The notes: generated by a model from the sequence alone, not told the origin. A stretch of DNA of 64,000 bases from an uncultured Gammaproteobacteria bacterium (GCA_964496095.1 CAZBWU010000002.1:15595-79594); one strand, 5' to 3'. Positions 4,582 through 32,071 are shown, numbered from the stretch's first letter. A program made the numbers and translations.

Positions 4582-5052
4582 TTAATCCGTGATTACTTGT
4601 AGCTCATCCCCTATTTTAACACCTGTCCGCTCCATAAACCCAGCTGGAACCTCCAAAACAAGAGTAGCTTCGGCACGTGGCTTGTATACCACCAGCTTTT
4701 CCTCTGGCACATGCATTTCTGGCGGTAAATTAGGGGCAATATCTACAATTGTATTATTATATAACCAAATTATATCAAGCGGAAAGTGCATGTCTCGCAT
4801 AACCATAGCATACCTATCACTAGTCGGAAAGACAAACAGCATGCCACCATACTTGCCCATATCTTTTCTATCGCTCCAGCCTTTGAATCTATGATTGGGA
4901 GTGTCGGCCACCAGAACATACAATTTCTGGTTGCCGATTTTTATAGTGGCCTTTGTCCAAATGGCACCATAGATTCTATAGCCAATAGAAATAACTACAA
5001 GAATTGCGATTAGTACCAGATGCCAAGTTTTAAATGTTTTTTTTTCTTGCAT
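4582..5052 (-). CDS. DUF192 (COG1430) family protein, membrane anchored
   Basis: N-terminal TM helix followed by a DUF192-like core (GMLFVF...MRDMHFPLDIIWL). Confidence 0.65.
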   Translation of the reverse strand: MQEKKTFKTWHLVLIAILVVISIGYRIYGAIWTKATIKIGNQKLYVLVADTPNHRFKGWSDRKDMGKYGGMLFVFPTSDRYAMVMRDMHFPLDIIWLYNNTIVDIAPNLPPEMHVPEEKLVVYKPRAEATLVLEVPAGFMERTGVKIGDELQVITD

Positions 5053-5061: not shown

Positions 5062-6069
5062 CTAAACTTTCTTTCGTCCAATCAAATGACTAACTATTGC
5101 CATTAAAATTACTAAAAACAATAAAGCGTAAAATTTTTGTAAACTTTGTAAAAACAAGGTGCTCAGACCAAATAAAATTGCCATAAAATATAAAAGACCA
5201 ACTGCTTGCCTCTGACTAAATCCGCCGTCCACCAAACGAAAATGAAGGTGTTCACGGTCGCCAGTAAAAATAGGCTGCCCTCGACGGACTCTTATATATA
5301 TTACACGAATTAGGTCAAAAACGGGAATAGCCATCACTAGTAGCGCAGTCGCAAGTTTTCCACCACCGACAATCGCCAATACCCCAATCATAAACCCGAG
5401 CAACATACTACCACTCTCTCCTAAAAATATTTTGGCTGGATAGAAATTAAAAACCAAAAATCCTAAACATACTCCCAAAAAAATAAGCGCAACCAAACTA
5501 ACATTGGGTTGATAAAATTTGGTAATGGAAGTGAGTAGATATATAACAAACGCGCCAATAGCTACCACTCCTGTCGCTAGACCGTCCAGGCCATCTAAAA
5601 TTTTTACCGTATAAGTCGTGCCCATCAACCAAAAAAATACCAAAATACCCCCAAGCATATTTCCAAACTCAATATAACCGCCAAAAGGGTTTGTAATTTT
5701 ACTAATCCACGGAACAAAAAGAGCTGAGATCATAATAGCAATTACTACAAATAACAAACGCACTTTGGCTGACATAGGCCTAATATCATCCGCTATGCCA
5801 ACAAGCAACATAATAACGGAAGAAATCAGCGCCACCATTAAAAAATCTTGAATTCGCTCTATTCCTCTAATAGGATGAAAAATAAGCAAAAATAAAATTA
5901 CTGCCCAAAAGGATAAAAAAATTGACACCCCGCCAAGCAGGGCCACAGGCTTGTCGTGTAAATGCCTACCGCCATCTGGCCGATCGACAATACTTAACTT
6001 CAAAGCCACCTTTCTAACTAGAAAAGTTGATATGAGTGATAATAAAAAAGCGATTAGAAAATAAAACAT
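5062..6069 (-). CDS. Glycosyltransferase family 4 polyprenyl-phosphate sugar-1-phosphate transferase (MraY/WecA-like)
   Basis: 335 aa, polytopic, with the DD motif (IADDIRP) and ILDGLDGLATG characteristic of the MraY/WecA family. The length favours WecA/TagO-like over MraY. Confidence 0.7.
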   Translation of the reverse strand: MFYFLIAFLLSLISTFLVRKVALKLSIVDRPDGGRHLHDKPVALLGGVSIFLSFWAVILFLLIFHPIRGIERIQDFLMVALISSVIMLLVGIADDIRPMSAKVRLLFVVIAIMISALFVPWISKITNPFGGYIEFGNMLGGILVFFWLMGTTYTVKILDGLDGLATGVVAIGAFVIYLLTSITKFYQPNVSLVALIFLGVCLGFLVFNFYPAKIFLGESGSMLLGFMIGVLAIVGGGKLATALLVMAIPVFDLIRVIYIRVRRGQPIFTGDREHLHFRLVDGGFSQRQAVGLLYFMAILFGLSTLFLQSLQKFYALLFLVILMAIVSHLIGRKKV

Positions 6070-6072: not shown

Positions 6073-8868
6073 CTATTCTACCGACATCATCCCTCCAGCT
6101 CCAACCGTCACCGTACTACCCCTTCTCAGTTTACCTTGCAATAACAATTCTGCCAATTTGTTTTCTACTTTCTCCTGTAAAGCCCTACGCATAGGTCTGG
6201 CACCAAACTCGGCATCAAAACCAACATCAACCAAAAATTCTAAGGCTTCATCGGTCGCTACCAAAGTCACGCCTTTTTCTTCAATATTTTTGGCAAGCTT
6301 CAAAAACATTTGGTTGGCGATTTTTTTGATACCATCTCTGTCCAAATCATTAAATAAAACAATACCATCAAACCGGTTCAAAAATTCCGGACGATAATAT
6401 TGTTTGAGTTCACCGTGAAGAAGTTGATTGAGAACTTTTTCATGCGGAACGCCATTTCGGTTTTGCTCTTGCACAAAGGCTGTGCCGGCATTGGAAGTAG
6501 CAATGATAATGACATTGGTGAAATCATAGACATGACCCGTACTGTCGCTCAACCGGCCATCATCCATAACTTGCAAAAATAAATTCAAAATATCAGGATC
6601 AGCTTTTTCCATTTCATCCAAGAGTACGAGTGAAAATGGATTCTGACGTATAGCTTCGGTCAGCACCCCGCTCGCCTTTTCTCCTGGCATACCAATAAGC
6701 CGATAAATACTAGACTTGTCTTGGTATTCACTCATATCTAGGCGAATCATACGATCTTCTCCGCCAAAATAAATATCAGCGATAGTTTTGGCAAGTTCGG
6801 TTTTACCTACACCAGTTGGACCCAAAAATAAAAAGCTAGCAATTGGCCGTTTGCCCGAACGAATCTCGGCTCTCGCTCTACGCAAGGCATTGGCTACGGC
6901 ACTCACGCCTTCTTCTTGACCAATCACGCGCTTGCGCATTTCTTCTTCTAGGTGCATTAATTTTTCTGATTCATTACTAGATATTGCCGACAAAGGAATC
7001 TTTGTTTTTTCGGTAATAACAGTGGCCACTTCTTCTTTAGTCACTAGAGAATTAGCGCCTTTGGTATTATGAGTAAGGCTCGCAGCTTCGGTAATAATCT
7101 CCAGCGCATTGCCAGGCAAAACTGTTTCATGCAAAAATTTCATGGAAAATTCTACCGCTTTTTCTATAGCCGAGTAAGAGAAAAAAACATTTTGTTTATA
7201 CTCCAAAGAACCAACTCTTGATTCCAAAACTTGAATAGCCTGATCTTCGTTCATCTCGGCAATATTTACTTTGGTAAAGACATCTTTGAGCGAAGAATTT
7301 GAAAAACGTCCGGCATAATCTTCGGTAGTAGTGGTAGCAATAGTAAGCACCTTATCACTACGCAAAAATTCAGCGATAGTATCGGCCATATCAAGACTAC
7401 CACTCTCACCGACCGACACACCCACAAGCTCATGCAAATTATTGATAAATAAAATCACATTTCGCGCTCGAGAAATCTCTTGCATGATAGATTGCAATCT
7501 CTCCACCGCTCCCTCGGGGCTTGTGCCGGCGAGCAAAGCCGAACTGCTAAGCCTAATCAATCTTTTATCTTTAAGTTTACTTGGCACATCTCCAGAGATC
7601 ATACTTTGAGCAATTCCCTCTACAATCGTTTTTTTACCCACCCCATGCTCGCCTACCAAAATCACATTATTTTGGCCACCATCAATTACTTGGAAAATCT
7701 GATCTATCTCAGCGGTACGAGCCACACATTCTTCTAGTTGGCCAAAATGAGCCATCATCGTAATATCAGAACTAAAACTATTTAAGTACGGTGTCGCTAG
7801 AGCAGTCATCGCTTTATCCATGCCATACTTGGAATGATGACTGATAGCCTTTTGCATTTTGAGGTACTCATGATGAAAACGTTCACGCATTCTCGCCCAC
7901 TCAATCACATTAGTCAGCTGTCTTTCGGAAATATCAAAATCAAACAACATGTCTTGCAAAGCAGGAGTTTCTCGCAATACTACAATCAATAACTCAGTCA
8001 CACTCACATAATCCTGCCGAGCCAAACAGGCTTCTTCGTAGGCTTGGAAAATTATTTGGTGAATATCTTTAGATACTATTGGCGACACACCATCATAAGC
8101 TTTTTGCTTATCAACCATTGGGAAAATATGCTCTAATTCTTTTTGCAAAGAACTAGCCGGAATTCCAAGTCTAATAAAAATATTGGAAATTCTATTAAAT
8201 GACAATAGTGTATAAAATATATGTTCAGGTTTTAATTCTTTGACTCTCATTTTATCAGCCAAACCATAGCTCTTAGCTAGAGCTGTCAAAGCTTCTTCAG
8301 TAAAAGCATTGGCAATATTAAATTTTTTTCTGCCAGAAAATTTTTTCGCTTGTGCCCAAGAATCTACAACCGCATCTGCCTTTTTCTCTTTATGTTGATA
8401 ATCATGTTTGAATGTTTCCATTTTACCCACAGATTCTTTCTTACGGATAATTTGATACCAAAGATATAGGATTGATAAGACACCTAACCAAAATAAAAAT
8501 TCTGCCCAATTATTTATTCCCTTAAAAAACAAAGACCATTGTTTCGGATCTGCTAATAAAGCAAACTTATCTTGCTTGAAAATAATAAACCCAGCCCAAA
8601 TCCAAGCGTTGAGCCAAAAGACAAAAGTTGTCACCATTCTTACGCGTTTCAAAATTCTACGCGCTTTTTGCAAAGCCAGATTATATTTGGTGAGCGAAAA
8701 ATCCCAATACAACCATAACCCACGCCTAGACATACCAAAAGCCATACTTTGACACTCTTTACATTTTCGGAGTTTGACAAAGCCTGTGCCTTGGCAGGTT
8801 TCACAAAAAAGTAATTTTAATGATTCTGATTTTTTAAATTGCTGCATATATAAGTCCGTAAAAAACAA
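6073..8868 (-). CDS. ClpC/ClpB-family double-AAA+ unfoldase with an N-terminal zinc ribbon and two TM helices
   Basis: Two AAA modules (Walker A GEHGVGKKT and GPTGVGKT; D2 Walker B LLDEME; sensor SRLIGMPGE), Clp_N-like repeats and a short middle region. The N-terminus carries CETCQ...CKECQ followed by two hydrophobic helices. The D1 Walker B reads FINNLH rather than FIDE(I/L)H. Confidence 0.85.
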   Translation of the reverse strand: MFFTDLYMQQFKKSESLKLLFCETCQGTGFVKLRKCKECQSMAFGMSRRGLWLYWDFSLTKYNLALQKARRILKRVRMVTTFVFWLNAWIWAGFIIFKQDKFALLADPKQWSLFFKGINNWAEFLFWLGVLSILYLWYQIIRKKESVGKMETFKHDYQHKEKKADAVVDSWAQAKKFSGRKKFNIANAFTEEALTALAKSYGLADKMRVKELKPEHIFYTLLSFNRISNIFIRLGIPASSLQKELEHIFPMVDKQKAYDGVSPIVSKDIHQIIFQAYEEACLARQDYVSVTELLIVVLRETPALQDMLFDFDISERQLTNVIEWARMRERFHHEYLKMQKAISHHSKYGMDKAMTALATPYLNSFSSDITMMAHFGQLEECVARTAEIDQIFQVIDGGQNNVILVGEHGVGKKTIVEGIAQSMISGDVPSKLKDKRLIRLSSSALLAGTSPEGAVERLQSIMQEISRARNVILFINNLHELVGVSVGESGSLDMADTIAEFLRSDKVLTIATTTTEDYAGRFSNSSLKDVFTKVNIAEMNEDQAIQVLESRVGSLEYKQNVFFSYSAIEKAVEFSMKFLHETVLPGNALEIITEAASLTHNTKGANSLVTKEEVATVITEKTKIPLSAISSNESEKLMHLEEEMRKRVIGQEEGVSAVANALRRARAEIRSGKRPIASFLFLGPTGVGKTELAKTIADIYFGGEDRMIRLDMSEYQDKSSIYRLIGMPGEKASGVLTEAIRQNPFSLVLLDEMEKADPDILNLFLQVMDDGRLSDSTGHVYDFTNVIIIATSNAGTAFVQEQNRNGVPHEKVLNQLLHGELKQYYRPEFLNRFDGIVLFNDLDRDGIKKIANQMFLKLAKNIEEKGVTLVATDEALEFLVDVGFDAEFGARPMRRALQEKVENKLAELLLQGKLRRGSTVTVGAGGMMSVE

Positions 8869-9187
8869 CTATCGGCAGAACTAACCAGATTAAAAATAAA
8901 ATTGAACAAAAAATTAACCAAAGAAAAAGTCCGAAAATACGAACTATAATTTGCACTAATCTGACAAAAAAACTGATAACTCGTCCTTGAAAATCAAACT
9001 GGCCATACATTGGCACAAACAGATTGGCCAACCACAAACCCGGAGCCAGGCTTTCATTACCCGTTTTGAGCAGACTAAAACATTGGCGCAAAGCATAGAG
9101 AATGCCCTTGCTATACCACCAAAGAGGAAAATAAAAAATATCAATAACAGATTCCAAAAGTAAATGCTGGAAAATAAGAATACCCAT
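8834..9187 (-). CDS. Hypothetical small membrane protein
   Basis: 117 aa, hydrophobic, overlapping the start of the ClpC-like gene. No recognisable domain. Confidence 0.35.
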   Translation of the reverse strand: MGILIFQHLLLESVIDIFYFPLWWYSKGILYALRQCFSLLKTGNESLAPGLWLANLFVPMYGQFDFQGRVISFFVRLVQIIVRIFGLFLWLIFCSILFLIWLVLPIVVFYGLIYAAI

Positions 9188-9302
9188 AATAGTTTTTATT
9201 ATACCATAAAAATGAAATTGTGCCGACTTTATTTATCCAAAGCTTGACGCAGTAATCCATCTATGTTAAATAAACTTCCAGGCCTAAAGGAGGGCCACTA
9301 CT

Positions 9303-9722
9303 ATGACGACTCATGACTGGAGAAAGCGCACGTCGGAGGGCGAGAAGCAACGACTGATCGGCAGGGCGTGGGGGTCGGTGGTGGGCACCTACCTCTGGTA
9401 CGAGATCGGGGAACGCGATCAGATCGTTCGCGAGCGGCCGAACATCATCGCCAACTGCTTCACCGATCACGTGGTGGTGCCCGGTGACATCGAGTGTCAC
9501 CGCAGCAAGTACCTCGCGGGCAACCCATGGCTCCTGCGACTGCGCGGCGGCAATCTCATCTTGCACCCCTCGCTGATCTGGGGGGGAGCAAGGCGCTACT
9601 GCCCGCTCTACCAGATCGGGCACGTGGTCGAGAGCAAGTGCGTGGACGACTGCCTCAACTTCTGGCAACGGATGGACGTCAACGCTCGCGCCGGCGGGCA
9701 CAGCCACAGCGACGACATCTGA
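9303..9722 (+). CDS. Hypothetical protein encoded in a GC-rich island (foreign-looking cassette)
   Basis: 139-aa ORF preceded by a strong SD (aaaggaggg, 7 nt from the ATG). The local GC content is far above the flanking DNA, the amino-acid composition is protein-like (W, Y, C, H rich), and a terminator follows. No recognised domain. Confidence 0.45.
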   Translation: MTTHDWRKRTSEGEKQRLIGRAWGSVVGTYLWYEIGERDQIVRERPNIIANCFTDHVVVPGDIECHRSKYLAGNPWLLRLRGGNLILHPSLIWGGARRYCPLYQIGHVVESKCVDDCLNFWQRMDVNARAGGHSHSDDI

Positions 9723-9866
9723 TCATGCCCTTCGGGGCCAGATCCGCGAGCGGCTCGGGCGCACCATACGACCCGACCACCGCTCAGATCCCAGACCCGA
9801 GCCGTTCACGCAATCTAATAATTAATTTGTTAAATTGCGCGAGCTCGGATCTGTATATAATTTAAA

Positions 9867-9897
9867 AACCCCGCCTTTCACGAAAGGCGGGGTTTTT
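9867..9897. terminator. Bidirectional rho-independent terminator between the GC island and ftsL
   Basis: aaaaaccccgcctttcacgaaaggcggggttttt: a perfect GC stem with A/T runs on both sides. Confidence 0.65.
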
Positions 9898-9918
9898 AGT
9901 ATATTTTTTTATTCAAAC

Positions 9919-10281
9919 TTACCTCTTCGCAACCTCATTATTATTAAAGCTCAATTGCTTGGCAACTCCAACTGATTCAACCATGTTTAATTTTTCAACT
10001 CTAGTCGCAATACTATTTATAGAACTATTATCTGCGATTTGTACTTCTAATTTTTGAATTTCATCTTGAAGACTATCTGTTTTTTGTTCTAACACTTTTA
10101 TTTGATAACCACTGGTCGCAGAAGCGGAAATATTAAAAATATAAGCCGCACCAAAAATAAATATAATTGAAAATAAACCAACACGAACCGCACGAGAATT
10201 CAGCCATCCAGGCAAACTAATAGTCTGTAAAGAAAATTTGAAATTCTGATATTTATTTTTGATTTGGCGTTTGATGGACAT
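9919..10281 (-). CDS. ftsL: Cell division protein FtsL-like (septum formation initiator family)
   Basis: 120 aa with a single TM helix followed by a coiled coil, located immediately downstream of rsmH in the conserved dcw order mraZ-rsmH-ftsL. Confidence 0.5.
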   Translation of the reverse strand: MSIKRQIKNKYQNFKFSLQTISLPGWLNSRAVRVGLFSIIFIFGAAYIFNISASATSGYQIKVLEQKTDSLQDEIQKLEVQIADNSSINSIATRVEKLNMVESVGVAKQLSFNNNEVAKR

Positions 10282-10286
10282 ACGAA

Positions 10287-11210
10287 TTAAATTTTTTCCA
10301 TAACCCTTAGTTTAGCGCTTCTGGCTCGTGGATTTGTCTCCAGCTCAGCTTCTGAGGCGATAATGGGTTTTTTATTAATTAATTTTATAGTTCTATTTTC
10401 GATTGATTTGAAATATTGTTTAACTATCCTATCTTCCAGCGAATGAAAGGTAATAACCGCTAATCTACCACCGCTTACGAGCACTTCTACGGCTTGCGGT
10501 AAGGCTTTTTTAAGATTTTCTAATTCGTGATTAACTTCTATTCGCAGTGCTTGGAATACTTTTGTGGCCGGATGTAAACCGCCAATCCAAGGAACTTCTT
10601 TTTGCGAATTTAATTTTTCTCTATACGCTTGTAAAATTATTTCTGTTAACTCTCCTGTCTTTTCTATTTTTTTATTTTTTCTATAAACTGTTATTGCTTT
10701 GGCAATCTCTCGGCTCAGTTGTTCTTCGCCTAAATTTTTAAAAATCACAGCCAACTCATTTTCACTATAACTATTTACCACCTCAGCAGCCGTCCAACTT
10801 TCGCCTTCAGATTTGAGCATCTCACCAGAGTCATACCGCATATCTAGGACCTCGTCTGTCAAAAAGCTAAATCCTCTCCCCCGCTCTTCAAATTGCGGTG
10901 TGGACCAACCCAAGTCCATCAAAATTGCATTTACTGTTTTAAAATCGTTTTTTTCAACAATATTTTTTAAATTGGCAAAATTGTCTCTTACTAGTACGGC
11001 TTTATCCTCAAATCGATACAGAAATCTTTTAGCTCGCAAAATCGCTTCTAGATCCAAATCTATGCCAAGCAATTTGCCAGTCGGCGCAATCTTCTCCAGC
11101 ATGGCTTCGCTATGCCCTGCATCACCGAGTGTACAATCAATGACATTGCTTCCTGCTTTTAGTTGTAAAGAGTCAATCGTTTCAGTTGGTAATACCGGTA
11201 CATGTTTCAT
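10287..11210 (-). CDS. rsmH: 16S rRNA (cytosine1402-N4)-methyltransferase RsmH (MraW)
   Basis: N-terminal VPVL motif, SAM-binding region (DCTLGDAGHSEAMLEK) and a 307-aa length. Adjacent to mraZ. Confidence 0.9.
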   Translation of the reverse strand: MKHVPVLPTETIDSLQLKAGSNVIDCTLGDAGHSEAMLEKIAPTGKLLGIDLDLEAILRAKRFLYRFEDKAVLVRDNFANLKNIVEKNDFKTVNAILMDLGWSTPQFEERGRGFSFLTDEVLDMRYDSGEMLKSEGESWTAAEVVNSYSENELAVIFKNLGEEQLSREIAKAITVYRKNKKIEKTGELTEIILQAYREKLNSQKEVPWIGGLHPATKVFQALRIEVNHELENLKKALPQAVEVLVSGGRLAVITFHSLEDRIVKQYFKSIENRTIKLINKKPIIASEAELETNPRARSAKLRVMEKI

Positions 11211-11220
11211 ATTGTTTTTA

Positions 11221-11652
11221 TTACACTCCTAGCTCCCCCATCTTCTCAGCAATCGCTCCACTTTCGGCTTCAGTTTGATTCTTGTATTTATTCCATAATT
11301 CATCATCCCAGATTTCCAAGCGATTATAGAGACCGGCAACAACCAAAGTTTTTTTGATACTAGCAAACTTACGTAAGTACTCTGGCAAAATCACTCGGCC
11401 TTGTTTATCAAGTTCTACATCCATCGCACCAGCAAGCATGAGTCTAGAAAAAGCACGACTGTTGGATTGACTAATTGGCAGAGCGGCTAATTTCTCAGCG
11501 AGTTTTTCCCATTCAGTTTTGGTATAAAGAAAAAGACAATTATCCAAACCTCTAGTAACGACTGCGCCTTTGCTAAGTTCACGACGAAATTTAGCTGGAA
11601 TAGCCATTCTGCCTTTATCATCTAGATTGTGGCTATATTCACCAATGAACAT
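11221..11652 (-). CDS. mraZ: Transcriptional regulator MraZ
   Basis: 143 aa with the duplicated MraZ fold signature (KGRMAIPAKFRREL ... KQGRVILPEYLRKF). Confidence 0.9.
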   Translation of the reverse strand: MFIGEYSHNLDDKGRMAIPAKFRRELSKGAVVTRGLDNCLFLYTKTEWEKLAEKLAALPISQSNSRAFSRLMLAGAMDVELDKQGRVILPEYLRKFASIKKTLVVAGLYNRLEIWDDELWNKYKNQTEAESGAIAEKMGELGV

Positions 11653-12273: not shown

Positions 12274-13629
12274 CTATACCTCAACCTCCAACCCAAAGAT
12301 CACCGGCATTGCCTGTATCCCCAAATCTTCTGTCACTTTTTTTGCCAGAATTGCTGACACCCCCGGTTCGCCATGATTGAACAAAACTTTTTTCGGCTTG
12401 CTTTTATTACTATCTATCCATTTCATTAGTTTGGCTTGATCGCCGTGGGCTGATAAGGCGCCAATGGCTTTGATTTGGCAATGCACCGGAATATGTTCTC
12501 CCATAATTTCTACAGGTGACTGACCGTCCAGAATTCTTCTACCCAATGTATTTTCTGATTGATAACCAATAATAAGCAACGTATTTCTGGCATCCGACAA
12601 ATAACGCATCGCATGATGCATAATACGCCCCCCATTCATCATCCCCGAACCGGCAATAACTATTTTTGGTCCCGGTACATTATTTATTTTTTTTGATTCT
12701 TCTTTGGTTTCCGTCATCACCAGTCCTGGGAAATCAAACAATTCATCGCCATTTTTATATAACTTCGCTGCTTCCACATCGTAATACTTAGGATATTTAA
12801 GATACGTTCTGATAGCTTTGATAGCCAAGGGACTATCCAAAAAAATCGGCACTTTTGGCAAGATATGCTGACGATCAATGAGATTATTTAATTCATAAAT
12901 TAATTCTTGCGTTCGCTCTAGAGAAAAAGATGGGATCATTAGCGTGCCTCCGCGAGCAATCGCTTCGCGAATAAGAGTTGCCAAAATTTCTTGACGTCTA
13001 GTAATAGTTTCATGCAAACGATTACCATAAGTAGATTCACAAACAAGCACATCTATACCGGCTGGGAGGTTTTCGGTTTCTTTTAAGATCGGCACATTGA
13101 CATTGCCAACATCGCCTGAGAACACAACACGCTTTCCTTCGGCTTCAACTTCTACAAACGCAGAACCAAAAATATGACCTGCATCGTGCAGTGTAAAAGA
13201 TACTTCCGGAGTGAGAGTAAATTTTTCATTATATTCAACCGGCTTAAATCTTTCCATTACTTTTGTAATATCACCTTCGTCATACAAAGCTGGAATATTG
13301 TAATGAGTCTGGTTATATAACATGATATGCAAAGCATCTTCCATAATCAGTTCGGCCAGTTCTATCGTCGGAGGGGTGGCATAAAAACGACCTTCATAAC
13401 CGTCTTTGACTAGTAGTGGCAATCGACCCACGTGGTCAAGATGAGCGTGAGTGATAATTACCCCAGATAATTCTGACGGTTTAAAAGAAAGTTGATCTTT
13501 ATTTTTGGCTTCACTAAATTGATTGCCTTGAAACATTCCGCAGTCAACCAAAAAATGCTTAGCACCAACCGTAAACATACTGCAAGAACCTGTGACTTCG
13601 CCTGCCGCGCCGAAGAAAGACAACTTCAT
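12274..13629 (-). CDS. MBL-fold beta-CASP ribonuclease (RNase J-like)
   Basis: HAHLDHVG motif, beta-CASP and MBL motifs, and a conserved N-terminus MKLSFFGAAGEVTGSC. The track ORF extends a further 49 aa upstream through the repeat E3; ATG 13627-13629 is taken as the likely true start. Confidence 0.8.
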   Translation of the reverse strand: MKLSFFGAAGEVTGSCSMFTVGAKHFLVDCGMFQGNQFSEAKNKDQLSFKPSELSGVIITHAHLDHVGRLPLLVKDGYEGRFYATPPTIELAELIMEDALHIMLYNQTHYNIPALYDEGDITKVMERFKPVEYNEKFTLTPEVSFTLHDAGHIFGSAFVEVEAEGKRVVFSGDVGNVNVPILKETENLPAGIDVLVCESTYGNRLHETITRRQEILATLIREAIARGGTLMIPSFSLERTQELIYELNNLIDRQHILPKVPIFLDSPLAIKAIRTYLKYPKYYDVEAAKLYKNGDELFDFPGLVMTETKEESKKINNVPGPKIVIAGSGMMNGGRIMHHAMRYLSDARNTLLIIGYQSENTLGRRILDGQSPVEIMGEHIPVHCQIKAIGALSAHGDQAKLMKWIDSNKSKPKKVLFNHGEPGVSAILAKKVTEDLGIQAMPVIFGLEVEV

Positions 13630-13643
13630 ATAAATAAGGTATC

Positions 13644-13719
13644 TGTCATCCTGAATGAAATGAAGGATCTCTGTCTCAATCACCGCCGGACAGAGATTCT
13701 TCGCAAGCTCAGAATGACA
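13644..13719. repeat. MITE/REP-like palindromic element copy E3, 15 nt upstream of the RNase J-like start
   Basis: tgtcatcctgaatgaaatgaaggatctctgtc ... ccggacagagattcttcgcaagctcagaatgaca. An open reading frame is retained through it. Confidence 0.75.
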
Positions 13720-13821
13720 ATTAAAAAATGCTTTATTGACTGGATAAAGTATACCAAAGAAAATAATATAAAACAAAAAAGCACGCGGGTGCGAGCAATA
13801 ATTTAAAACTTTATTTATGAG

Positions 13822-13850
13822 GGCTGGGTCGAGGAACGGTCGACCCAGCC
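13822..13850 (-). terminator. Hairpin (11-bp perfect stem) downstream of the Cys-rich island gene
   Basis: GGCTGGGTCGA-ggaacgg-TCGACCCAGCC. The downstream tract is only weakly T-rich. Confidence 0.3.
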
Positions 13851-13946
13851 ACGTGGCATGATGGTCTACCGTTCCTAGGTGGTCAGGCTAATAGCCCGAC
13901 CGTTGTTGGCGGTGGCTCAGCCACCCGTCGGCACGCCCCTTGCGGG

Positions 13947-14309
13947 CTAGCCGTGCTTGCAGGCGCAGCCGTTGCCCTTGTCGTCGCAGCCCGTCCAGTG
14001 CAGGCAGAAGGGCACGCAGGTGAAGCCCTGAGCCTCGACCTGCGCACAGCAGTCCGTGTCACCCCCGACACCGCACTCCATGCAGATCGCCGCCCAGAGG
14101 TTGTCACCGCAGTCGATGACGTACACTCCGCGAGCCGCGGCTTCCGGGGTGGAGTTGTCCTCCTCCGTGCAGGCCGCGCCGGTGCAGGACGAGTCGTTGT
14201 CGTTGATGCGGGTGACGAGGGTCACACCGTCATCGGTGGGGACGTCCTCCGTACAACCACCGACGGTGAGGGTGGCGAGGACCGCGAGCAAAGTGGTGAA
14301 GGTACGCAT
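13947..14309 (-). CDS. Secreted (probable lipo)protein, cysteine-rich, encoded in a GC-rich island
   Basis: 120 aa with signal peptide MRTFTTLLAVLATLTVGGC and about 18 Cys in the mature part (CxxC, CC and CxC motifs). SD aggag about 10 nt upstream. The local GC is far above the genome background. Confidence 0.5.
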   Translation of the reverse strand: MRTFTTLLAVLATLTVGGCTEDVPTDDGVTLVTRINDNDSSCTGAACTEEDNSTPEAAARGVYVIDCGDNLWAAICMECGVGGDTDCCAQVEAQGFTCVPFCLHWTGCDDKGNGCACKHG

Positions 14310-14473
14310 TTTTGAAACTGACTCCTGTCAAGAAAACGCCTTCGAGGAAACCTTTCCTCGGTTAGACCCCAACACCTTGCCCTATTTTCCCCTTTTTGTC
14401 AAGGGTTTTATCCCCATTTTTATATGTTTTTTGAGATGTTCAAAAACAAATTTTTCTGCTACAATAATGCAAT

Positions 14474-15145
14474 ATGCGAAGAAACATAAACAATGTTGAA
14501 ATAGTTGAACCACCAATTGGCGAACTGACCAAAAAATACTCCGCTTTCTCGGCTATAAAACGCGCCTGCCTGACTGGTTGCGGTTGTTTGGTTTTTGTGA
14601 TTATTGCTGTTATCATTATTATTCGCCTGGTGATGGGAAGCGGCCCCACCACTCTCAAATCTGTACCAGAAAACTTCCCGTCCGATATACCAGTTTATGA
14701 CCCAGACAGAATCGAACAAATCACTTTTATTTCCGGCAAATACAAAAATCGAGGCATAGAGATTGCGGCCTTATTCCCCAAAATCATCCTCTCTCCCCTG
14801 CTCGTCACTTTAGATAAGGGTTCTCAAAATAACATTACCGCTGATAAAAATACTTCCATCAAAAATTTATGGAACACAATTAGCGCGCCTGTGAGCGACC
14901 ATCGCGACACAGTGCAAATTGAATGGCGCAAGCTGGATGCTGAACCACCGTATGTCATCACCTATTACAAAACCGAATTACAAAAAGAATCATACAAAAT
15001 AGATGTGGAAAGCGAAGGTGATAATGTCCAACAATTTTCTTTTAGTAAGGGCGAAGTAAGCGGATCAATGTATGTGCAGGGCCCGCCTGGGCAAGGATCG
15101 GATTATGCGGTGCTGACTGTCAACTTAATCAATAAACCAGAATAA
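14474..15145 (+). CDS. Hypothetical membrane-anchored protein
   Basis: 223 aa with one N-terminal TM helix (CLVFVIIAVIIIIRLV). No recognisable domain. Confidence 0.4.
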   Translation: MRRNINNVEIVEPPIGELTKKYSAFSAIKRACLTGCGCLVFVIIAVIIIIRLVMGSGPTTLKSVPENFPSDIPVYDPDRIEQITFISGKYKNRGIEIAALFPKIILSPLLVTLDKGSQNNITADKNTSIKNLWNTISAPVSDHRDTVQIEWRKLDAEPPYVITYYKTELQKESYKIDVESEGDNVQQFSFSKGEVSGSMYVQGPPGQGSDYAVLTVNLINKPE

Positions 15146-15153
15146 ATTTCAAC

Positions 15154-15299
15154 TGTCATCCCGAGCGAAGCCGCTCCTGCGGCTGACGAGGGATCTAAAC
15201 ATTAATTTTAATTTAATGAATAGATTCCTCACACCTAAAGGGGGTTCGGAATGACAACGACCAACCGGACAGAGATTCTTCACTCCGTTCAGAATGACA
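15154..15299. repeat. Composite MITE/REP-like elements E4 (full unit plus half unit) between the stop of the previous gene and murJ
   Basis: tgtcatcccgagcgaagccgctcctgcggctgacgagggatct ... ggttcggaatgaca, followed by accaaccggacagagattcttcactccgttcagaatgaca. Confidence 0.75.
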
Positions 15300-15333
15300 A
15301 GGAACAAACCAGATAGATACAAAAAATAAAAAT

Positions 15334-16950
15334 ATGCTCAAAATTCTCAACAGCCAATTAAAATCAATCACCAGCGCCGCCATTATTATTTCTGGCGCGA
15401 CCTTGGTTAGTCGCGTTGTTGGATTAGCTCGGGATAGAATCTTTGCGCACTACTTCGGCGTGGGACCAGTGATGGATTCATATTACGCTGCTTTTAGAAT
15501 TCCGGATTTGATTTATAATCTGCTTATTGTCGGCGCGCTCAGCGCCGGTTTTATCCCTACTTTTACCAAACTATTTAATCAAAGCGAAGACAAAACTCCG
15601 GCCTGGAAATTGGCAAATAATATTTTAAATATCACCGCCATATCTCTGGCTATACTTAGTTTTTTTGGCATGTTATTTACTCCAGCTCTGACAAACCTTA
15701 TTGCTCCCGGATTTGATAACGCCTCCAAAGAACTAGTGACGAGTTTTACTAGAATCATGTTTGGCTCAACTGTTATGCTCGGACTATCTATGGTTATCGG
15801 TGGAGTCCTGCAATCTCTACGTGCTTTTTTCTTATATTCTCTAGCGCCAATTTTTTATAATCTTGGCATTATTGTCGGAGCCGTGGTACTGGTGCCACTG
15901 ATGGGCATAAGAGGCTTGGCTTGGGGTGTGGTCCTCGGTGCTTTTATGCACCTATCACTCCAAATATATAGCGCCTATGCCAATGGTTATAAATGGAAAT
16001 GGTACTTTAATCTCAAAGATCAAAACGCCAAAATAATCGGCAAGCTCATGGTACCACGCACTTTGGGACTAGCTATTAACCAACTCAATCTAGTTATCAT
16101 CACTATCCTTGCTTCTTGGCTTCCGACAGGCAGTGTAACAATTTTTAATTTTGCCAATAACTTGCAAGCTGTGCCTATCGGCATTATCGGCATACCATTT
16201 GCGATCGCAGTATTCCCCGTACTCTCGGCGGCCGCTGCCAAAAACGATATAGATGAATTTATCAAAAATCTATCATCAACAATCAGACAGATTTTATTTT
16301 TAATAATCCCCTGCGCTATTATTTTTCTACTTCTGCGAGCCCAAATCGTACGCGTGATATTAGGCACAGGCAAATTCAATTGGGATGCAACCATAAGCAC
16401 TGGCAACACTTTGGCTTTTTTTGCGCTGAGTATGTTTGCCCAGGCTCTTATCCCGCTAGTGGCTCGCGCTTTCTATGCGCTTGCCAATACCAAAACTCCT
16501 TTTATCATCGGCATCATCTCGGAGCTAACTAGTATTATTGCGGCTCTCTTGCTGATGAAACCGTTTGGCGTCGCTGGCTTGGCTTTGGCATTTTCTATTG
16601 GCTCTATTTTAAATTTAATTATTTTAAGTATATATCTAAGAAATACTCTCACAAAAATTAATGGCGACAAAATCTTTTCTTCTTTTTATAGAATAATTAT
16701 AGCAGCCATCCCAATGGCTCTACTAATACAATATATCAAAGATCCGCTAGCTAAAATTTTTAATCAAGACTATTTTTGGGGTATCCTAGGCCAAGGATTG
16801 GTAGCGGGGCTGGCTGGTCTAGCAATCTATCTTATACTGTGTTATCTTTTGAGGGTGCCAGAGCTACTTCAGATCAAAGAAAGCCTTACGAACCGGTTCC
16901 TACGACCAAAACAAGTCCAAACTCAAGAATCTATTGAAACAAACGCTTAA
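15334..16950 (+). CDS. murJ: Lipid II flippase MurJ (MviN)
   Basis: 538 aa, polytopic, with the conserved MurJ N-terminus (SRVVGLARDRIFAHYFGVGPVMDSYYAAFRIPD). Confidence 0.85.
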   Translation: MLKILNSQLKSITSAAIIISGATLVSRVVGLARDRIFAHYFGVGPVMDSYYAAFRIPDLIYNLLIVGALSAGFIPTFTKLFNQSEDKTPAWKLANNILNITAISLAILSFFGMLFTPALTNLIAPGFDNASKELVTSFTRIMFGSTVMLGLSMVIGGVLQSLRAFFLYSLAPIFYNLGIIVGAVVLVPLMGIRGLAWGVVLGAFMHLSLQIYSAYANGYKWKWYFNLKDQNAKIIGKLMVPRTLGLAINQLNLVIITILASWLPTGSVTIFNFANNLQAVPIGIIGIPFAIAVFPVLSAAAAKNDIDEFIKNLSSTIRQILFLIIPCAIIFLLLRAQIVRVILGTGKFNWDATISTGNTLAFFALSMFAQALIPLVARAFYALANTKTPFIIGIISELTSIIAALLLMKPFGVAGLALAFSIGSILNLIILSIYLRNTLTKINGDKIFSSFYRIIIAAIPMALLIQYIKDPLAKIFNQDYFWGILGQGLVAGLAGLAIYLILCYLLRVPELLQIKESLTNRFLRPKQVQTQESIETNA

Positions 16951-25140: not shown

Positions 25141-25827
25141 CTATCTAAAAAATTTAGCTATAAAAATATCTTGTAAAACTTTTATTCCCCCGCTAACATT
25201 TTGTCCATACTCAAAATACTTTACTTCCACGGGATGCTCTACAAAAACTAAATTGTTTTCTTTTACTTGCCTAACAATTTCCGAATTGTGCGCCATGCGA
25301 TCTTGGGTAATATTTATTTTTTCCAAAGCTCGTCTGGATAAAATCCTAAAACCATTGTGCGCGTCGGTCAACTTAAGGCCGGTTAAAATCCTATTAATAA
25401 ACCGACTGATGGGCAAAAGAATATATCTTTTTGTCCAAGGAAGTTTTGATCTATTATCCAAAAACCTGGAACCAAAAACCACGTCAGCATTGTTTTTTTG
25501 CATCACCTCAATAGCCTCGGCAATATCACCAGGATTAAACTGCCCGTCAGCATCAAAATGGACAACCAAACTAGTATTTTTTAGCAAAGCGTACTCATTG
25601 CCAGTTTGTAGAGACGCGCCCTGGCCTCTATTTATCTCGTGACGTAAAACCACCGCGCCTGCCTCTTCAGCAATTTGCGCTGTACGATCTGTTGAACCAT
25701 CATCTACAACGACAATATTTTTATATCCTTTTTCAAAAAGGTCGCTTATGACGCGACCAATTTTTTTTTCTTCATTGTACGCTGGCACAATCACAAAAAT
25801 CATATTCCTTCTAGAAACCCCTACCAA
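25141..25827 (-). CDS. GT2 family polyprenyl-phosphate glycosyltransferase (DPM1/ArnC-like)
   Basis: IVPAYNEE...VVVDDGSTDRT and a DxD region; the 228-aa soluble GT-A fold is typical of polyprenyl-P sugar synthases. Confidence 0.8.
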   Translation of the reverse strand: MVGVSRRNMIFVIVPAYNEEKKIGRVISDLFEKGYKNIVVVDDGSTDRTAQIAEEAGAVVLRHEINRGQGASLQTGNEYALLKNTSLVVHFDADGQFNPGDIAEAIEVMQKNNADVVFGSRFLDNRSKLPWTKRYILLPISRFINRILTGLKLTDAHNGFRILSRRALEKINITQDRMAHNSEIVRQVKENNLVFVEHPVEVKYFEYGQNVSGGIKVLQDIFIAKFFR

Positions 25828-26833
25828 ACATCAAAGCCTCCTTGTTGGCAATAGTATAATCAATCGTTTTTTCCAAACCGTCTTGCAGACGCACTAACGG
25901 CATCCAACCCAACACATCCTTGGCATAAGCCAGGTCTGGGGCGCCTTTTCTAGTGAGAAACAACAGTGGTTTCTCAAACACAATTTTTGAAGAAGAATTA
26001 GTAGCGGCAATAATAGTATTAGCCACATCAACAATTTTTATTACTTTATCATCACCCAAATTTACAATCTGCACATCAGGAGTGCTGGCCATTAGTCGGA
26101 CCATACCATCAACTAGATCTGTAATATAGCAAAGAGATGTAGAAGAAGATTCATCTCCATTTATTACCAAATCTTTACCCATAAGCGAGTTTACAATAAA
26201 ATCAGGAATCATCTGACCTTCAAATAATTTCATGTGCGGACCGTAAGTAGTGAACACTCTCGCAATTTTGGCATCAATACCATAGACCTGACGATAAGTA
26301 GCCACACAAGTCTCGGCAAAACGTTTGCCCTCATCATAACAAGCGCGTGGTGACAAATGATCAACCAGACCCTGGTCACTTTCTTTAAAAACATATTTTT
26401 GATCTGTAGCATTACCATAGACTACCGAGCTTGATGTAAAAACATACTTAGCGTGATACTTAACTGCCAAATCCAAAGTGCTAATCATTGAAGAAGAATT
26501 CGCCCATAAAGATTTCATTTTTAATTTTTCAAAATCATTTGGGCTAGTCGGACAAGCCAAATGATAGATCTCTTGAATACCTTGAAATTTAACTTTAAAC
26601 TTATCTAATTCTTCAAATTTATCCAAATCAATCATTTGATTACTATCGCATTTGATAAACTCAAAATCAGGATATTGCAATAAGTGATTTATATTAGACG
26701 GCGAAGAATTGGAAAAGTCATCAAGACATATTACTTTAGCTTCTTTGAGTAATCGCTCACAAAGATGAGAGCCAATAAACCCAGCGCCACCGGTAACAAG
26801 GACGTTCTTTTTCTCAAAAATTAGAGTATCCAT
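25811..26833 (-). CDS. NAD-dependent epimerase/dehydratase (UDP-glucuronate decarboxylase / UXS-like SDR)
   Basis: VLVTGGAGFIGSHL Rossmann motif, a YxxxK catalytic region and a 340-aa length. Confidence 0.8.
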   Translation of the reverse strand: MDTLIFEKKNVLVTGGAGFIGSHLCERLLKEAKVICLDDFSNSSPSNINHLLQYPDFEFIKCDSNQMIDLDKFEELDKFKVKFQGIQEIYHLACPTSPNDFEKLKMKSLWANSSSMISTLDLAVKYHAKYVFTSSSVVYGNATDQKYVFKESDQGLVDHLSPRACYDEGKRFAETCVATYRQVYGIDAKIARVFTTYGPHMKLFEGQMIPDFIVNSLMGKDLVINGDESSSTSLCYITDLVDGMVRLMASTPDVQIVNLGDDKVIKIVDVANTIIAATNSSSKIVFEKPLLFLTRKGAPDLAYAKDVLGWMPLVRLQDGLEKTIDYTIANKEALMFGRGF

Positions 26834-26955
26834 ATGACGTAAATCCTAATTTCTAAAACCTTAAATACTAAAATTAAACACTAAAATTACAGTTGTAATT
26901 ATAGCATTTGCTATACTAATTGACAACATGATGCCTTCTCTAATATGCTAAACTT

Positions 26956-27125
26956 GGTGGCGTGCATCCCCGAAGAGACTTGGAAGCAAGCCTGGAGATT
27001 GGATAGTCCAATCTCTGTGGTACAGAAAACCCATTCTCAATGGACTCAAATGCATCAGATCCCAAAGGGAGAAATGCCGAGAGTTCGAGAGTGAGCACGC
27101 TGTACCCTTTAGGGCACTCGCCACC
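26956..27125. ncRNA. Candidate structured small RNA (about 170 nt with an end-closing helix); identity and strand unknown
   Basis: The GGTGGCG ... CGCCACC termini pair, and the interior has several hairpins (GGAGATTGG-atagt-CCAATCTC; CCC-aaa-GGG; CCC-tta-GGG). It is GC-richer than its surroundings, in the 300-nt gap between the S8 peptidase stop and the glycosylation-operon start. Confidence 0.2.
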
Positions 27126-27130
27126 ACTTA

Positions 27131-28654
27131 CTATTCAACCTTCCAACTTCCGCTAGAGATATCAATAATAACTTTTTGAGAAGTCTTACCTTTTTTACCG
27201 ATTATTATCGGGTTTGCTCCTTGACCCCAGAGATATTCAATTTTTACACTCGCTATTCCACTAAACCCAGGCAAAACTAAATTTGATAATTTTTTCACTC
27301 CCGACAAATCCCAAGCATCGACAATTATTCTATTTTTACCAATACGAGCATGAACAAATAATCCGTCCTTAAAAAACCATTTTGAGGACTTAGGGAAATA
27401 ATCAACTAGATTTATACTTCGTGCTACTTGCCCATCTGCCAAAATCTGCGCTACATAATTTTTGGGATTCTTGATAATTTTGACTGTATAAACTACTGCA
27501 GGAGGCGGAGGGGTATTTTTTACTTCCAGCGCTCTAAGCACCGCTTTGCCAATATTTAAACGTCCATACCCCATCTGTCCGGCAAAACCAGGATTGAGCG
27601 AATCTACATCATCTGCTGTTTTGAGCAAAACATCAGTTATTTCTTTAGGACCCCAATTTGGTTGAATAGATTTTATTAAGGCTGCAGATCCAGCCACCAT
27701 TGGCGCCGAAAAAGAGGTCCCGTACCAAGCTCCCCCAAAATCTTTGCCATAACCATCTGATGGAGAATATTTTTGCGTACTGAAGAAAGCTTCTCCAGGA
27801 GCGGAAATATCCACACAACTGCCATAATCGGCAAAATCACTTAAGTGATCATCCTTATCAACTGAAGCTACTCCCAAAACCCAATTATCAGAAGAGTCTG
27901 AATCAAGACAAATTGGATATTGTTTTATTTTTGTTAAATTTTCATTACCTGTTGTGTCGTTACGACTATTGCCAGCAGCTACTACTACCAGCACACCCTT
28001 TTTATAAGCATTATAGAGCGCGTCAGTCAAATCGATATCTTTGTTCTGACCAACAAAACTAAGACTAATAATATTAGCTCCATTATTTACTGCATAATTT
28101 ACCGCTTTGGCTACATTACCCAGCGAACCTGCACCATCACTACTAAGCGCACGCAAAGGCATAATTTTGACATGCCAGTTGAGCCCCGTGCCATTCAAAC
28201 CGTTGTTCCCTTCTTCACCAATAACACCGGCCAAGACAGTACCATGGTTAACTGCCCCCGAATCGTCAGATTGCAAAATTGCAGGAATATTTACCGAGTT
28301 ATTATTTTCCACAAAATTCCAACCACGAGTATCATCTATAAAACCATTGTTATCATCATCAATATTATTTCCTCCTATTTCTCTTGGATTTTGCCAAATA
28401 TTATTTGTTAAATCATTATTGAAAATATCTACACCAGTATCAATAACCGCCACCACCACATTACTACTGCCAGTGGTATGTTCCCAAGCTAAAGGCGCTC
28501 CAATTTGGGTATAATAGGGCTCTTGAAAACTAAATTTTGGGTCATTTGGTATCTTGGCACTAGTAGAATTAGCCAAAAAAACTGAACAAAAAAATAAAAC
28601 GGCCAAAGGCTTAACTATTGATTTTTTTCCTAATTTAAAGTAATATCTAAACAT
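27131..28654 (-). CDS. Secreted S8 family subtilisin-like serine peptidase
   Basis: Signal peptide plus catalytic triad motifs VAVIDTGVD, HGTVLAGVIG and GTSFSAPMVAGSAALI; 507 aa. Confidence 0.85.
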   Translation of the reverse strand: MFRYYFKLGKKSIVKPLAVLFFCSVFLANSTSAKIPNDPKFSFQEPYYTQIGAPLAWEHTTGSSNVVVAVIDTGVDIFNNDLTNNIWQNPREIGGNNIDDDNNGFIDDTRGWNFVENNNSVNIPAILQSDDSGAVNHGTVLAGVIGEEGNNGLNGTGLNWHVKIMPLRALSSDGAGSLGNVAKAVNYAVNNGANIISLSFVGQNKDIDLTDALYNAYKKGVLVVVAAGNSRNDTTGNENLTKIKQYPICLDSDSSDNWVLGVASVDKDDHLSDFADYGSCVDISAPGEAFFSTQKYSPSDGYGKDFGGAWYGTSFSAPMVAGSAALIKSIQPNWGPKEITDVLLKTADDVDSLNPGFAGQMGYGRLNIGKAVLRALEVKNTPPPPAVVYTVKIIKNPKNYVAQILADGQVARSINLVDYFPKSSKWFFKDGLFVHARIGKNRIIVDAWDLSGVKKLSNLVLPGFSGIASVKIEYLWGQGANPIIIGKKGKTSQKVIIDISSGSWKVE

Positions 28655-28679
28655 AATACCGTTTATTATATCATACTTT

Positions 28680-30059: not shown

Positions 30060-30082
30060 GAAATAAAAAATTGCTTAAAAAG

Positions 30083-30322: not shown

Positions 30323-30333
30323 AAAATTATTAT

Positions 30334-31974: not shown

Positions 31975-31985
31975 ATGTTTTTTAT

Positions 31986-32071
31986 TGTCATCCCGAGCGA
32001 AGCCGCTTTTGCGGCTGACGAGGGATCTATACTTTAATGAATAGATTCCTCACACAAGGTTCGGAATGACA
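31986..32071. repeat. MITE/REP-like palindromic element copy E6, between the rplI stop and the pyrG start
   Basis: tgtcatcccgagcgaagccgcttttgcggctgacgagggatct ... ggttcggaatgaca. Confidence 0.75.

Follow-up and report, generated by a model that had tools for sequence, protein, structure and literature searches.

Clp/Hsp100 machines are the textbook polypeptide-threading motors. Three of them, ClpA, ClpB and ClpC, share one domain order—an N-terminal domain (Clp_N), a first AAA+ module (D1), a second AAA+ module (D2) and a small domain that completes D2—and this is also the order of the protein described here, a Clp-like protein of probably 924 amino acids (aa). It is encoded in a 64,000-nucleotide (nt) stretch of DNA recorded as coming from an uncultured Gammaproteobacteria bacterium (GCA_964496095.1, CAZBWU010000002.1:15595-79594; 'the window' below means the whole of this stretch). 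A zinc finger, a transmembrane (TM) hairpin, a small membrane partner and a neighbourhood of envelope and division and cell wall (dcw) genes are found with the Clp-like protein only, and not with ClpA, ClpB or ClpC. Together with its partner it constitutes a membrane module of two genes, one that is specific to Patescibacteria (Magasanikbacteria and relatives). We propose, with confidence that is evenly balanced, that the protein is a D2-powered and probably non-threading remodeller or switch that acts on membrane partners, and that neighbouring envelope and division proteins are its most likely clients.

Other AAA+ proteins come close in one respect or another. In FtsH, two N-terminal TM helices hold a cytoplasmic AAA+ ring with its entry face to the bilayer; the protein is linked to envelope homeostasis, and takes its name from a filamentation phenotype. 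The Clp-like protein resembles FtsH in its predicted two-TM tether and in a ring whose entry face would be turned towards the membrane. It differs in that FtsH has one AAA module, of the classical clade, whose pore loop is aromatic and to which an M41 peptidase is fused; Pfam and NCBIfam scans found no peptidase domain in the Clp-like protein.

Torsin, a Clp/Hsp100 relative, is membrane-associated, lacks the aromatic pore loops that Clp/Hsp100 proteins conserve and critically depend on for processive unfolding, and has a degenerate AAA+ partner, LAP1/LULL1, in trans (PMC5425593). The likeness to our protein lies in membrane association through an N-terminal hydrophobic segment and in the absence of aromatic pore loops (PMC5425593), the degenerate AAA+ element being present in trans for Torsin, as LAP1/LULL1, and in cis, as D1, for the Clp-like protein. 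The differences are considerable. Torsin, of the eukaryotic endoplasmic reticulum (ER) and nuclear envelope, has a single AAA+ module, closest to D2 of Clp/Hsp100, and no Arg finger of its own (the cofactor supplies it), and resides in the ER lumen, whereas the Clp-like protein has two modules, the second equipped with RPEFLNRFD and GKT, and would work in the bacterial cytoplasm. Conceptually, Torsin is the closest precedent for a relative that does not thread, but the resemblance is one of mechanism only; nothing points to direct common descent. In plants, the SMXL/D53 proteins form a clade of type I HSP100/Clp-ATPases (10.1101/2023.04.11.536386) and act as transcription and growth regulators rather than as classical unfoldases. 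They are a precedent for the use of the Hsp100 scaffold in another role, but they are eukaryotic, soluble, nuclear and unrelated in function, and D2 of the Clp-like protein, unlike the SMXL/D53 comparison case, is by its motifs a fully equipped ATPase.

Among the bacterial machines, Staphylococcus aureus ClpC is the best match in sequence (1e-128), and ClpC structures are the best match in fold in the PDB (Foldseek, 1e-56), with more than 800 columns aligned against full-length ClpC. Yet every NCBIfam model falls short of its cut-off: ClpB scores 543.8 where 1232 is required, ClpA 515.2 (993), TssH 445 (885), ClpG 417 (1900) and ClpK 415 (1900). Membership of the ClpA, ClpB or ClpC families is ruled out by these scores and by the state of D1, the pore loops, the ClpP loop and the M-domain. 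In databases, members of the family are labelled ClpC, ClpA, 'chaperone ATPase' or hypothetical, and full-text searches of the literature found no description of the architecture, in keeping with the suspicion voiced in an earlier first-pass annotation, made from the sequence of the window, that the combination was uncharacterised. On account of that combination of domains, and of the motif losses set out below, we regard the family as an Hsp100 subfamily in its own right, so far uncharacterised and provided with a partner of its own.

The gene and its family

The open reading frame (ORF) occupies 6073..8868 on the minus strand, as do all the domains and motifs of the Clp-like protein given below, and would encode 931 aa if counted from the TTG at 8868, its first possible start and the one adopted by the first-pass annotation. 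Orthologues begin at a position that matches an in-frame ATG at 8847; one of them (P0001; 93% identity, 924 aa) has the N-terminus MQQFKK, as here. For this reason the gene likely runs from that ATG to the stop codon at 6073-6075 (6073..8847, 924 aa), and the TTG is probably not used. More than 120 protein clusters of 900–930 aa, 53–93% identical to the Clp-like protein, cover 100% of the query, and all sources with informative names are Patescibacteria, Parcubacteria or Candidatus Magasanikbacteria. It is a strongly conserved gene of the ultra-small bacteria of the 'candidate phyla radiation' (CPR).

The N-terminal extension is part of this conservation. When its first 189 residues were compared by phmmer with 1.84 billion representative sequences, only 67 matches were returned, the full-length ones 888–963 aa long, which argues that the extension is family-specific and translated. 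It is kept at the protein level in relatives down to ~20–25% identity; a true start downstream of the TM region, the circumstance that would have removed the membrane anchor predicted in the first pass, is thereby ruled out.

Three samples underlie the figures that follow: motif counts and charge averages come from 91 relatives, statements on invariant residues of the Clp-like protein from 65 aligned homologues, and gene order from 89 loci. Many of the records with the module, metagenome-assembled genomes from GTDB (L010-L089), bear the title 'uncultured Gammaproteobacteria bacterium'; a pair of proteins (P0014/P0223) goes under 'Candidatus Udaeobacter sp.'. Such names, outside the Patescibacteria, suggest mis-binning, or taxon labels that are generic or mistaken.

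The first AAA+ module

D1 (6973..7779; aa 357-625) has kept the AAA+ fold but, by its motifs, is catalytically degenerate. It aligns without gaps to D1 of S. aureus ClpC (HMMER), and the two can be read side by side. Walker A is GEHGVGKKT (7627-7653) against GEPGVGKTA in ClpC; Walker B is ILFINNLHEL (7426-7455) against ILFIDELHTL; and the pore loop is AGTSPEGAVERL (7495-7530), with no Tyr, against AGTKYRGEFEERL. At the Arg-finger site (SSLKDVFTKV, 7267-7296), where ClpC has ALERRF, the protein reads SLKDVF, and the double Arg finger is gone. The Asp-Glu of Walker B, the Thr of Walker A, the Tyr of KYRG and the paired Arg fingers thus all distinguish ClpA, ClpB and ClpC from the protein described here. 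The first-pass annotation had picked out FINNLH in the place of FIDE(I/L)H, correctly, since it lies opposite FIDELH of ClpC with no gap and is no artefact of alignment, but had overlooked the other D1 losses: Walker A Thr, pore-loop Tyr and Arg fingers.

The census shows these changes to be general. At the Walker B position the relatives have HN, NN, DN, QN, KN, EN, PS or SG (consensus HN, as in FIHNIH); DE occurs neither among these listed variants nor in distant members read singly. Walker A is of the form GK[KRM][ST], at times GR or GM, and seldom the canonical GKS or GKT, the Thr or Ser that coordinates magnesium having given way to Lys, Arg or Met in most members. The D1 pore loop is free of aromatic residues in all 91. 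The module has not simply drifted, for its mean consensus fraction is 0.64, and its fold is still constrained. These observations support a D1 that is catalytically dead. The earlier prediction, of a module that binds ATP but does not hydrolyse it, is uncertain in view of the substitutions in Walker A.

The second AAA+ module

D2, with its small domain (6076..6972; aa 626-924), is the converse. Pfam recognizes both parts (AAA_2, PF07724, 3.5e-51; ClpB_D2-small, PF10431, 4.2e-24), and these, with the AAA_2 motifs, place the protein within the broad Clp/Hsp100 superfamily. The module is 35–40% identical to D2 of ClpA, ClpB and ClpC, with every ATPase motif present: Walker A GPTGVGKTE (6796-6822), identical in 82 of the 91 relatives; Walker B LVLLDEMEKA (6601-6630; LLDE[IML]EKA in the family), whose LLDEME had been rightly called canonical; a conserved sensor-1, ATSNAG; the Arg finger RPEFLNRFD (6367-6393); and sensor-2 GARPMRR (6184-6204; GARP[ML]RR in the family). 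All five are invariant or nearly so, in the aligned homologues and in the census.

What D2 has lost are the parts that handle substrates, losses that the first pass had also missed. In the place of GAPPGYVGHDDGG of ClpC it has GMPGEKASG (6652-6702), a pore loop shortened by a 4-residue deletion and without GYVG, or the Tyr of GYVG that ClpA, ClpB and ClpC possess. The loop has no aromatic residue in 89 of the 91 relatives (the other 2 have one), and its length and sequence vary among the deeper clades. The ClpP-docking loop of ClpA and ClpC has been deleted: at a site within 6394-6483 a 7-residue gap stands opposite FAGFGGS of ClpC, and aa 789-818 contain neither an xGF nor an xGL motif. The M-domain of ClpB and ClpC, a coiled coil set into the small domain of D1 by which ClpB couples to DnaK or ClpC to MecA, is missing, too, as is any linker coiled coil. 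The ClpA model TIGR02639 matches in one stretch (aa 192-922 of the protein, 4-732 of the model), whereas the matches to ClpB and to ClpC each fall into two parts that overlap on the query. D1 and D2 are both in place, as the first-pass annotation had them, but the layout is ClpA-like and not one of modules joined by a linker domain. The protein is like ClpA in having no M-domain and like ClpB in having no ClpP loop.

D2 is thus supported as an ATPase-competent module, and the pattern of conservation indicates that its catalysis is under strong purifying selection and that the loss of the pore loops is ancient and family-wide. Since catalysis has been kept while the pore loops have been lost, ATP is probably still used, but for something other than threading.

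The N-terminal half: zinc finger, membrane hairpin and Clp_N

Near its N-terminus the protein has a predicted zinc finger with a single zinc centre (8734..8805; aa 15-38), of the cysteine-rich (CR) type found in DnaJ and predicted to be cytoplasmic. Its sequence, CETCQGTG-x6-CKECQSMAFG, corresponds to the family motif CxxCxGxG-x6-CxxCxGxG, that is, CxxCxGxG twice. Cys15, Cys18, Cys29 and Cys32 are invariant in the aligned homologues and present in distant members, and AlphaFold2 (AF2) predicts beta-strands at aa 13-47. CxxCxGxG repeats of this kind occur in the CR domain of DnaJ, in Anti-TRAP and in BSD2. The Pfam model PF00684 (DnaJ_CXXCXGXG) scores the finger at 19.3 bits, below its gathering threshold of 32.7. 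There are two repeats where DnaJ has four; zinc binding is predicted. Among 34 family fingers, PF00684 gives a below-threshold match in 30, Anti-TRAP in 9 and BSD2_CRD in 4. Compared by hhalign with the CR domain of the DnaJ encoded in the same window (40773-41873), a profile of the 34 fingers aligns with a probability of 93% (E=3e-7). DnaJ has two zinc centres, four repeats and a J-domain, whereas this finger has one centre, two repeats and no J-domain, and, unlike the DnaJ-like zinc-finger proteins, continues into a TM hairpin and the body of a Clp protein.

Two hydrophobic helices follow, as the first pass had noted. TM helix 1 lies at 8578..8643 (aa ~69-90), within a helix that AF2 places at 54-91; its Kyte-Doolittle value over a 19-residue window is 1.7 in the query and reaches 2.9 in relatives. 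TM helix 2 (8437..8511; aa ~113-137; AF2 helix 113-138) is rich in aromatic residues and followed by RKK, and its hydrophobicity is clear in relatives. The charges are distributed according to the positive-inside rule. The segment before TM1 averages 5.1 Lys and Arg against 0.8 Asp and Glu; the loop of ~20 aa between the helices is neutral, at 1.6 against 1.7; and Lys and Arg across the three regions of the hairpin run 5.1, 1.6 and 3.0. The excess of positive charge before TM1 over that in the loop leads to a predicted N-in, C-in topology, and the data fit a hairpin with the finger in the cytoplasm, a short loop outside, and the body in the cytoplasm. Hydropathy, AF2 and charge bias together support an integral membrane protein, held by a two-helix hairpin whose insertion is predicted, and hence the membrane-tethered Clp/Hsp100 derivative that had been envisaged.

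Behind the hairpin lies a divergent Clp_N domain (7933..8322; aa ~176-305). The first-pass annotation called it a full Clp_N. The domain is there: the ClpA model starts to align at its position 4, AF2 predicts eight helices within aa 184-303, the Foldseek alignments to ClpC take it in, and Pfam Clp_N is significant in relatives. It has diverged, though, and Pfam Clp_N does not reach threshold in the query itself (E=0.03). The double-repeat N-domain that characterizes ClpC is thus present, in divergent form. The AF2 model as a whole is good (predicted local distance difference test score, pLDDT, 79.9; predicted template modelling score, pTM, 0.67), and in it a long helix (aa 308-337) precedes a flexible stretch, with pLDDT below 50 at aa 339-349.

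That flexible stretch belongs to a near-invariant, family-specific motif, SKxGMDKAMTALATPYLN, in the linker between the N-domain and D1 (7780..7842; aa 336-356). Ser339, Gly342, Met343, Asp344, Ala346, Met347, Thr348, Ala349, Thr352 and Leu355 are invariant, the family pattern is [RK]P[KR]GxM[DN][RK]AMTA[LIV]ATPxL[ND], and the motif recurs in distant members. Nothing like it is found in ClpA, ClpB or ClpC upstream of the common TPxL motif. It could be a docking or an autoregulatory element.

The small membrane partner

Immediately upstream, and also on the minus strand, is a gene for a membrane protein of 117 aa (8834..9187). Its stop (8834) lies beyond the ATG of the Clp-like gene (8847), an overlap of 14 nt that bears out the first-pass remark on a small membrane-protein gene overlapping the start. 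The arrangement is conserved. From the stop of the partner gene to the first Cys codon of the Clp-like gene the median distance is 42 nt, and ~12–14 codons precede that Cys, so that the start of the second gene usually overlaps or abuts the stop of the first. Overlap of this kind suggests that the pair is translationally coupled, and we consider this likely.

The partner belongs to no Pfam or NCBIfam family. Its 203 homologues are all small hypothetical proteins of Patescibacteria, and P21, W23, W24, G28, W52, P59, M60, G68, S72, R76 and P105 are invariant. AF2 predicts, with confidence (pLDDT 91.9), a helical hairpin with a 34-residue hydrophobic C-terminus; a conserved loop, NLFVPM(Y/F)GQxDxQGR, separates the two helices, and the model has no fold match in the PDB. 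In a scan of GTDB with one genome per species, the partner was encoded in at least 576 species. In every one of the 89 loci its gene is immediately followed by the Clp-like gene, and it is an obligate companion of the Clp-like protein.

Genomic neighbourhood and transcription

The next gene downstream, on the same strand (5062..6069), encodes a polyprenyl-phosphate sugar-phosphate transferase of the Glycos_transf_4 family (GT4 below; PF00953, 1.4e-30), similar to WecA and TagO. It was also considered as MraY, an identity rejected on NCBIfam scores of 109 bits for WecA and 63 bits for MraY, both below cut-off. The sequence continues for more than 1 kb past the Clp-like gene in 80 loci; in 61 of these the GT4 gene follows, mostly within ~50 nt, in 15 a small multi-TM protein and FtsW take its place, and in 4 neither is present. 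In the FtsW variant—seen in L002, L004, L027, L035, L036, L040, L042, L044, L046, L049, L053, L062 and L068—a multi-TM protein of 100–117 aa without known family comes first, and FtsW begins ~360 nt past the Clp-like stop; in L002 and L004 the genes after FtsW encode several GT2 glycosyltransferases in succession and an epimerase. The last gene of the apparent unit in the window encodes a DUF192 (COG1430) protein (4582..5052, minus), syntenic in 55 of 89 loci.

Upstream, and on the minus strand as well, is the head block of the dcw cluster (9919..11652): mraZ (11221-11652), rsmH (10287-11210) and an ftsL/DivIC-like gene (9919-10281). The three are found upstream in 71–73 of the 89 loci (~80%). 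Where they are not adjacent (L005, L007, L008), the triad of partner, Clp-like protein and GT4 stays together, and it does so too in members only ~25–30% identical in the N-terminal region. The neighbourhood points to envelope and division biology rather than to general quality control.

The sequence after ftsL contains a strong, bidirectional hairpin terminator (9862-9899), and a promoter-like site, TCGGCA-17-TGgTATAAT (9198..9226, minus), recognized by its match to consensus and its conservation, ends just before the partner gene. The extended -10 block (TTTTTATGGTATAAT) is invariant in four close relatives, and, as it lies only 10 nt upstream of the partner ATG, it implies, if used as predicted, a nearly leaderless partner mRNA. 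Between 9187 and 4582 only weak terminator sites were found, with no strong one until past DUF192 and L21; the transcription unit in the window probably comprises partner, Clp-like protein, GT4 and DUF192.

Between ftsL and the partner gene the window has a GC-rich island (9290-9830, ~550 nt, 62–67% GC) in a genome of ~38% GC. It contains a 139-aa ORF on the plus strand (9303..9722), antisense to the operon and with the ribosome-binding site AAAGGAGG; searches of Pfam, NCBIfam, Rfam and phage and plasmid sequences matched nothing to this ORF, and the 89 related loci contain no homologue of it. An Rfam scan of the gap between ftsL and partner gave sub-threshold noise and no known RNA. The closest relatives (L010, L011 and L013) have GC-rich DNA at the same site, mostly of different sequence, and L013 and the window have a flank in common, ATCCGAGCTC...ATTGCGTG..CGGCTCGGGT, at ~9790-9850. 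An insertion hot spot, occupied by GC-rich cassettes that vary, would give this appearance, as possibly would an assembly chimera.

Some 32 kb from the module, on the minus strand (40773-45122), are genes for DnaK and DnaJ, both canonical, the latter with J-domain, four-repeat CR and C-terminal domain. The organism thus has an Hsp70 system, and the Clp-like protein has no M-domain with which to couple to it. For ClpP, ClpX and FtsH, tblastn with approximate queries gave only weak, generic AAA cross-matches in the 64-kb window and the 89 loci, which represent a small part of the genomes and say little about the whole of them. Envelope functions are abundant elsewhere in the window, at 12274-16950 and 25811-36070. 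The first of these regions includes an RNase J-like beta-CASP protein (12274-13776) and MurJ (15334-16950). Also encoded in the window are an epimerase, a subtilase, a WbaP-like Bac_transf protein (28680-30059), a CtpB-like S41 protease (33507-34769) and a MurA-like protein of the EPSP_synthase family (34775-36070). A 1273-aa ORF (58676-62497) and several ORFs of 220–330 aa were assigned no Pfam match.

What the module might do

As we picture it, the ring would be held beneath the membrane, on its inner side, and the face formed by N-domain and D1 would be turned to the bilayer. D1 would contribute to assembly and structure, a role that degenerate rings have in other AAA+ proteins with two rings, and D2 alone would hydrolyse ATP. 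With pore aromatics, ClpP loop and M-domain all absent, the protein should be neither a partner of ClpP in coupled unfolding nor a DnaK-dependent disaggregase of the ClpB type, and processive threading seems improbable. Turnover of ATP by D2 would, instead, switch the conformation of membrane-associated partners or remodel them, and the zinc finger, Clp_N and the small partner protein might provide the contacts with them. Of the proteins encoded next to it, the FtsL-like one, the WecA-like GT4 and FtsW are candidates for the role of client. A more specific form of this idea, to which we give tentative credence, treats the pair as a lineage-specific component of the division and cell-wall-precursor machinery in CPR bacteria similar to Magasanikbacteria: a bacterial, Torsin-like, non-threading switch in which hydrolysis of ATP by D2 would serve to assemble, activate or reset the membrane enzymes of undecaprenyl-linked precursors, GT4 or FtsW. 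The pair occupies the slot in the dcw cluster after ftsL that is usually taken by ftsI and the mur genes.

Several things weigh against a non-threading remodeller. The mechanism is argued from parts that are absent, and proximity of genes is no proof of a functional link. A ring with its entry face towards the membrane has the geometry to be expected of a machine that extracts membrane proteins. The D2 loop, variable as it is across clades, is well kept within the Magasanikbacteria as PGEKG(T/S)G, and could still grip a dedicated substrate; a second D2 loop region, DGRLTDSxGxxVDFTN, is conserved as well. In the window, moreover, the terminator after ftsL and the pair's own promoter-like site separate it from ftsL.

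Some of these points are the substance of a rival proposal, close to what the first-pass annotation had in mind when it spoke of membrane-protein quality control or disaggregation at the envelope: that the protein is a membrane-tethered unfoldase or extractor, which threads misfolded or mis-inserted membrane proteins by means of non-aromatic loops, with D2 as its sole motor. The TM anchor would put the N-domain/D1 entry face at the membrane in the manner of FtsH, D2 has its ATPase motifs intact, and the PGEKG(T/S)G loop is kept in the close family. DnaJ-type zinc fingers and Clp_N domains, moreover, are known modules for the binding of clients and adaptors. The census is hard to reconcile with such a machine, however. 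An aromatic residue is found in none of the 91 D1 loops and in 2 of the 91 D2 loops, and the D2 loop varies between deeper clades, when in Clp/Hsp100 proteins aromatic loops are critical for processive unfolding (PMC5425593). The ClpP loop and M-domain are lacking, and a general quality-control factor would not be expected to keep so fixed a place among dcw and envelope genes. We consider an extractor unlikely, although it is the chief rival, and the quality-control role first suggested is not supported by the results. For the ClpP-binding loop of IGF/LGF type, which the first pass had recommended looking for, there is a gap; nor did the 64-kb window or the 89 loci, a small part of each genome, yield a clpP gene. 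The recommended search for relatives with the same N-terminal extension, in contrast, was rewarded.

A narrower version of the remodeller that we favour makes the protein a dedicated assembly factor or regulator of GT4 or FtsW, which would control the flux of lipid-linked precursors by activating, inhibiting or turning over the enzyme at the expense of ATP. Where there is a GT4 gene (61 loci) it mostly lies within ~50 nt, a further 15 loci have FtsW, and the triad outlasts its adjacency to mraZ-rsmH-ftsL, as noted above. Control by AAA+ proteins over the first committed steps of envelope synthesis has precedents in ClpCP acting on MurAA in Bacillus subtilis and FtsH acting on LpxC in Escherichia coli. 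Those precedents are proteolytic, however, and the Clp-like protein, by its sequence, cannot dock ClpP. The downstream gene is not constant, either—it comes in two variants, and 4 loci with room for it have neither—and a physical interaction is conjectural. In so exact a form we think the idea is rather improbable. Two further readings can be dealt with more briefly. Should the protein be a decaying or non-functional paralogue, a pseudo-enzyme scaffold with no ATP-dependent role, the many lost catalytic and pore motifs would be explained, but not the near-invariance of the D2 catalytic motifs down to ~25% identity in the N-terminal region, nor full-length conservation in more than 120 clusters, nor a coupled partner in at least 576 species; this is very improbable. 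That it should be a plain ClpC or ClpA, working with ClpP as an ATP-dependent protease, is what annotations such as 'ATP-dependent Clp protease ATP-binding subunit ClpC/ClpA' imply, and ClpC does provide the best PDB matches in sequence and fold. But the scores are far below cut-off (ClpA 515 against 993, ClpB 544 against 1232), and ClpP loop, pore Tyr, live D1, M-domain and UVR motif are all missing. The failure to find clpP in the window and the 89 loci points the same way, weakly, as these cover a small part of each genome. This reading can scarcely be right.

Significance

Here, then, is a widely distributed bacterial clade in which an Hsp100 protein keeps the ATPase motifs of D2, discards the aromatic pore loops, the ClpP loop and the M-domain, and gains a finger, an anchor and a partner. 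It offers a bacterial test case for an Hsp100 scaffold working without threading, a question that the eukaryotic Torsins pose as well. The labels under which these proteins are filed, ClpC/ClpA or Clp protease ATP-binding subunit, mislead the reader, and reconstructions of CPR genomes that rely on them would infer too great a proteolytic capacity. The position of the module beside mraZ-rsmH-ftsL and genes for WecA-like enzymes or FtsW provides a handle on how these little-understood and uncultivated bacteria build their envelopes and divide.

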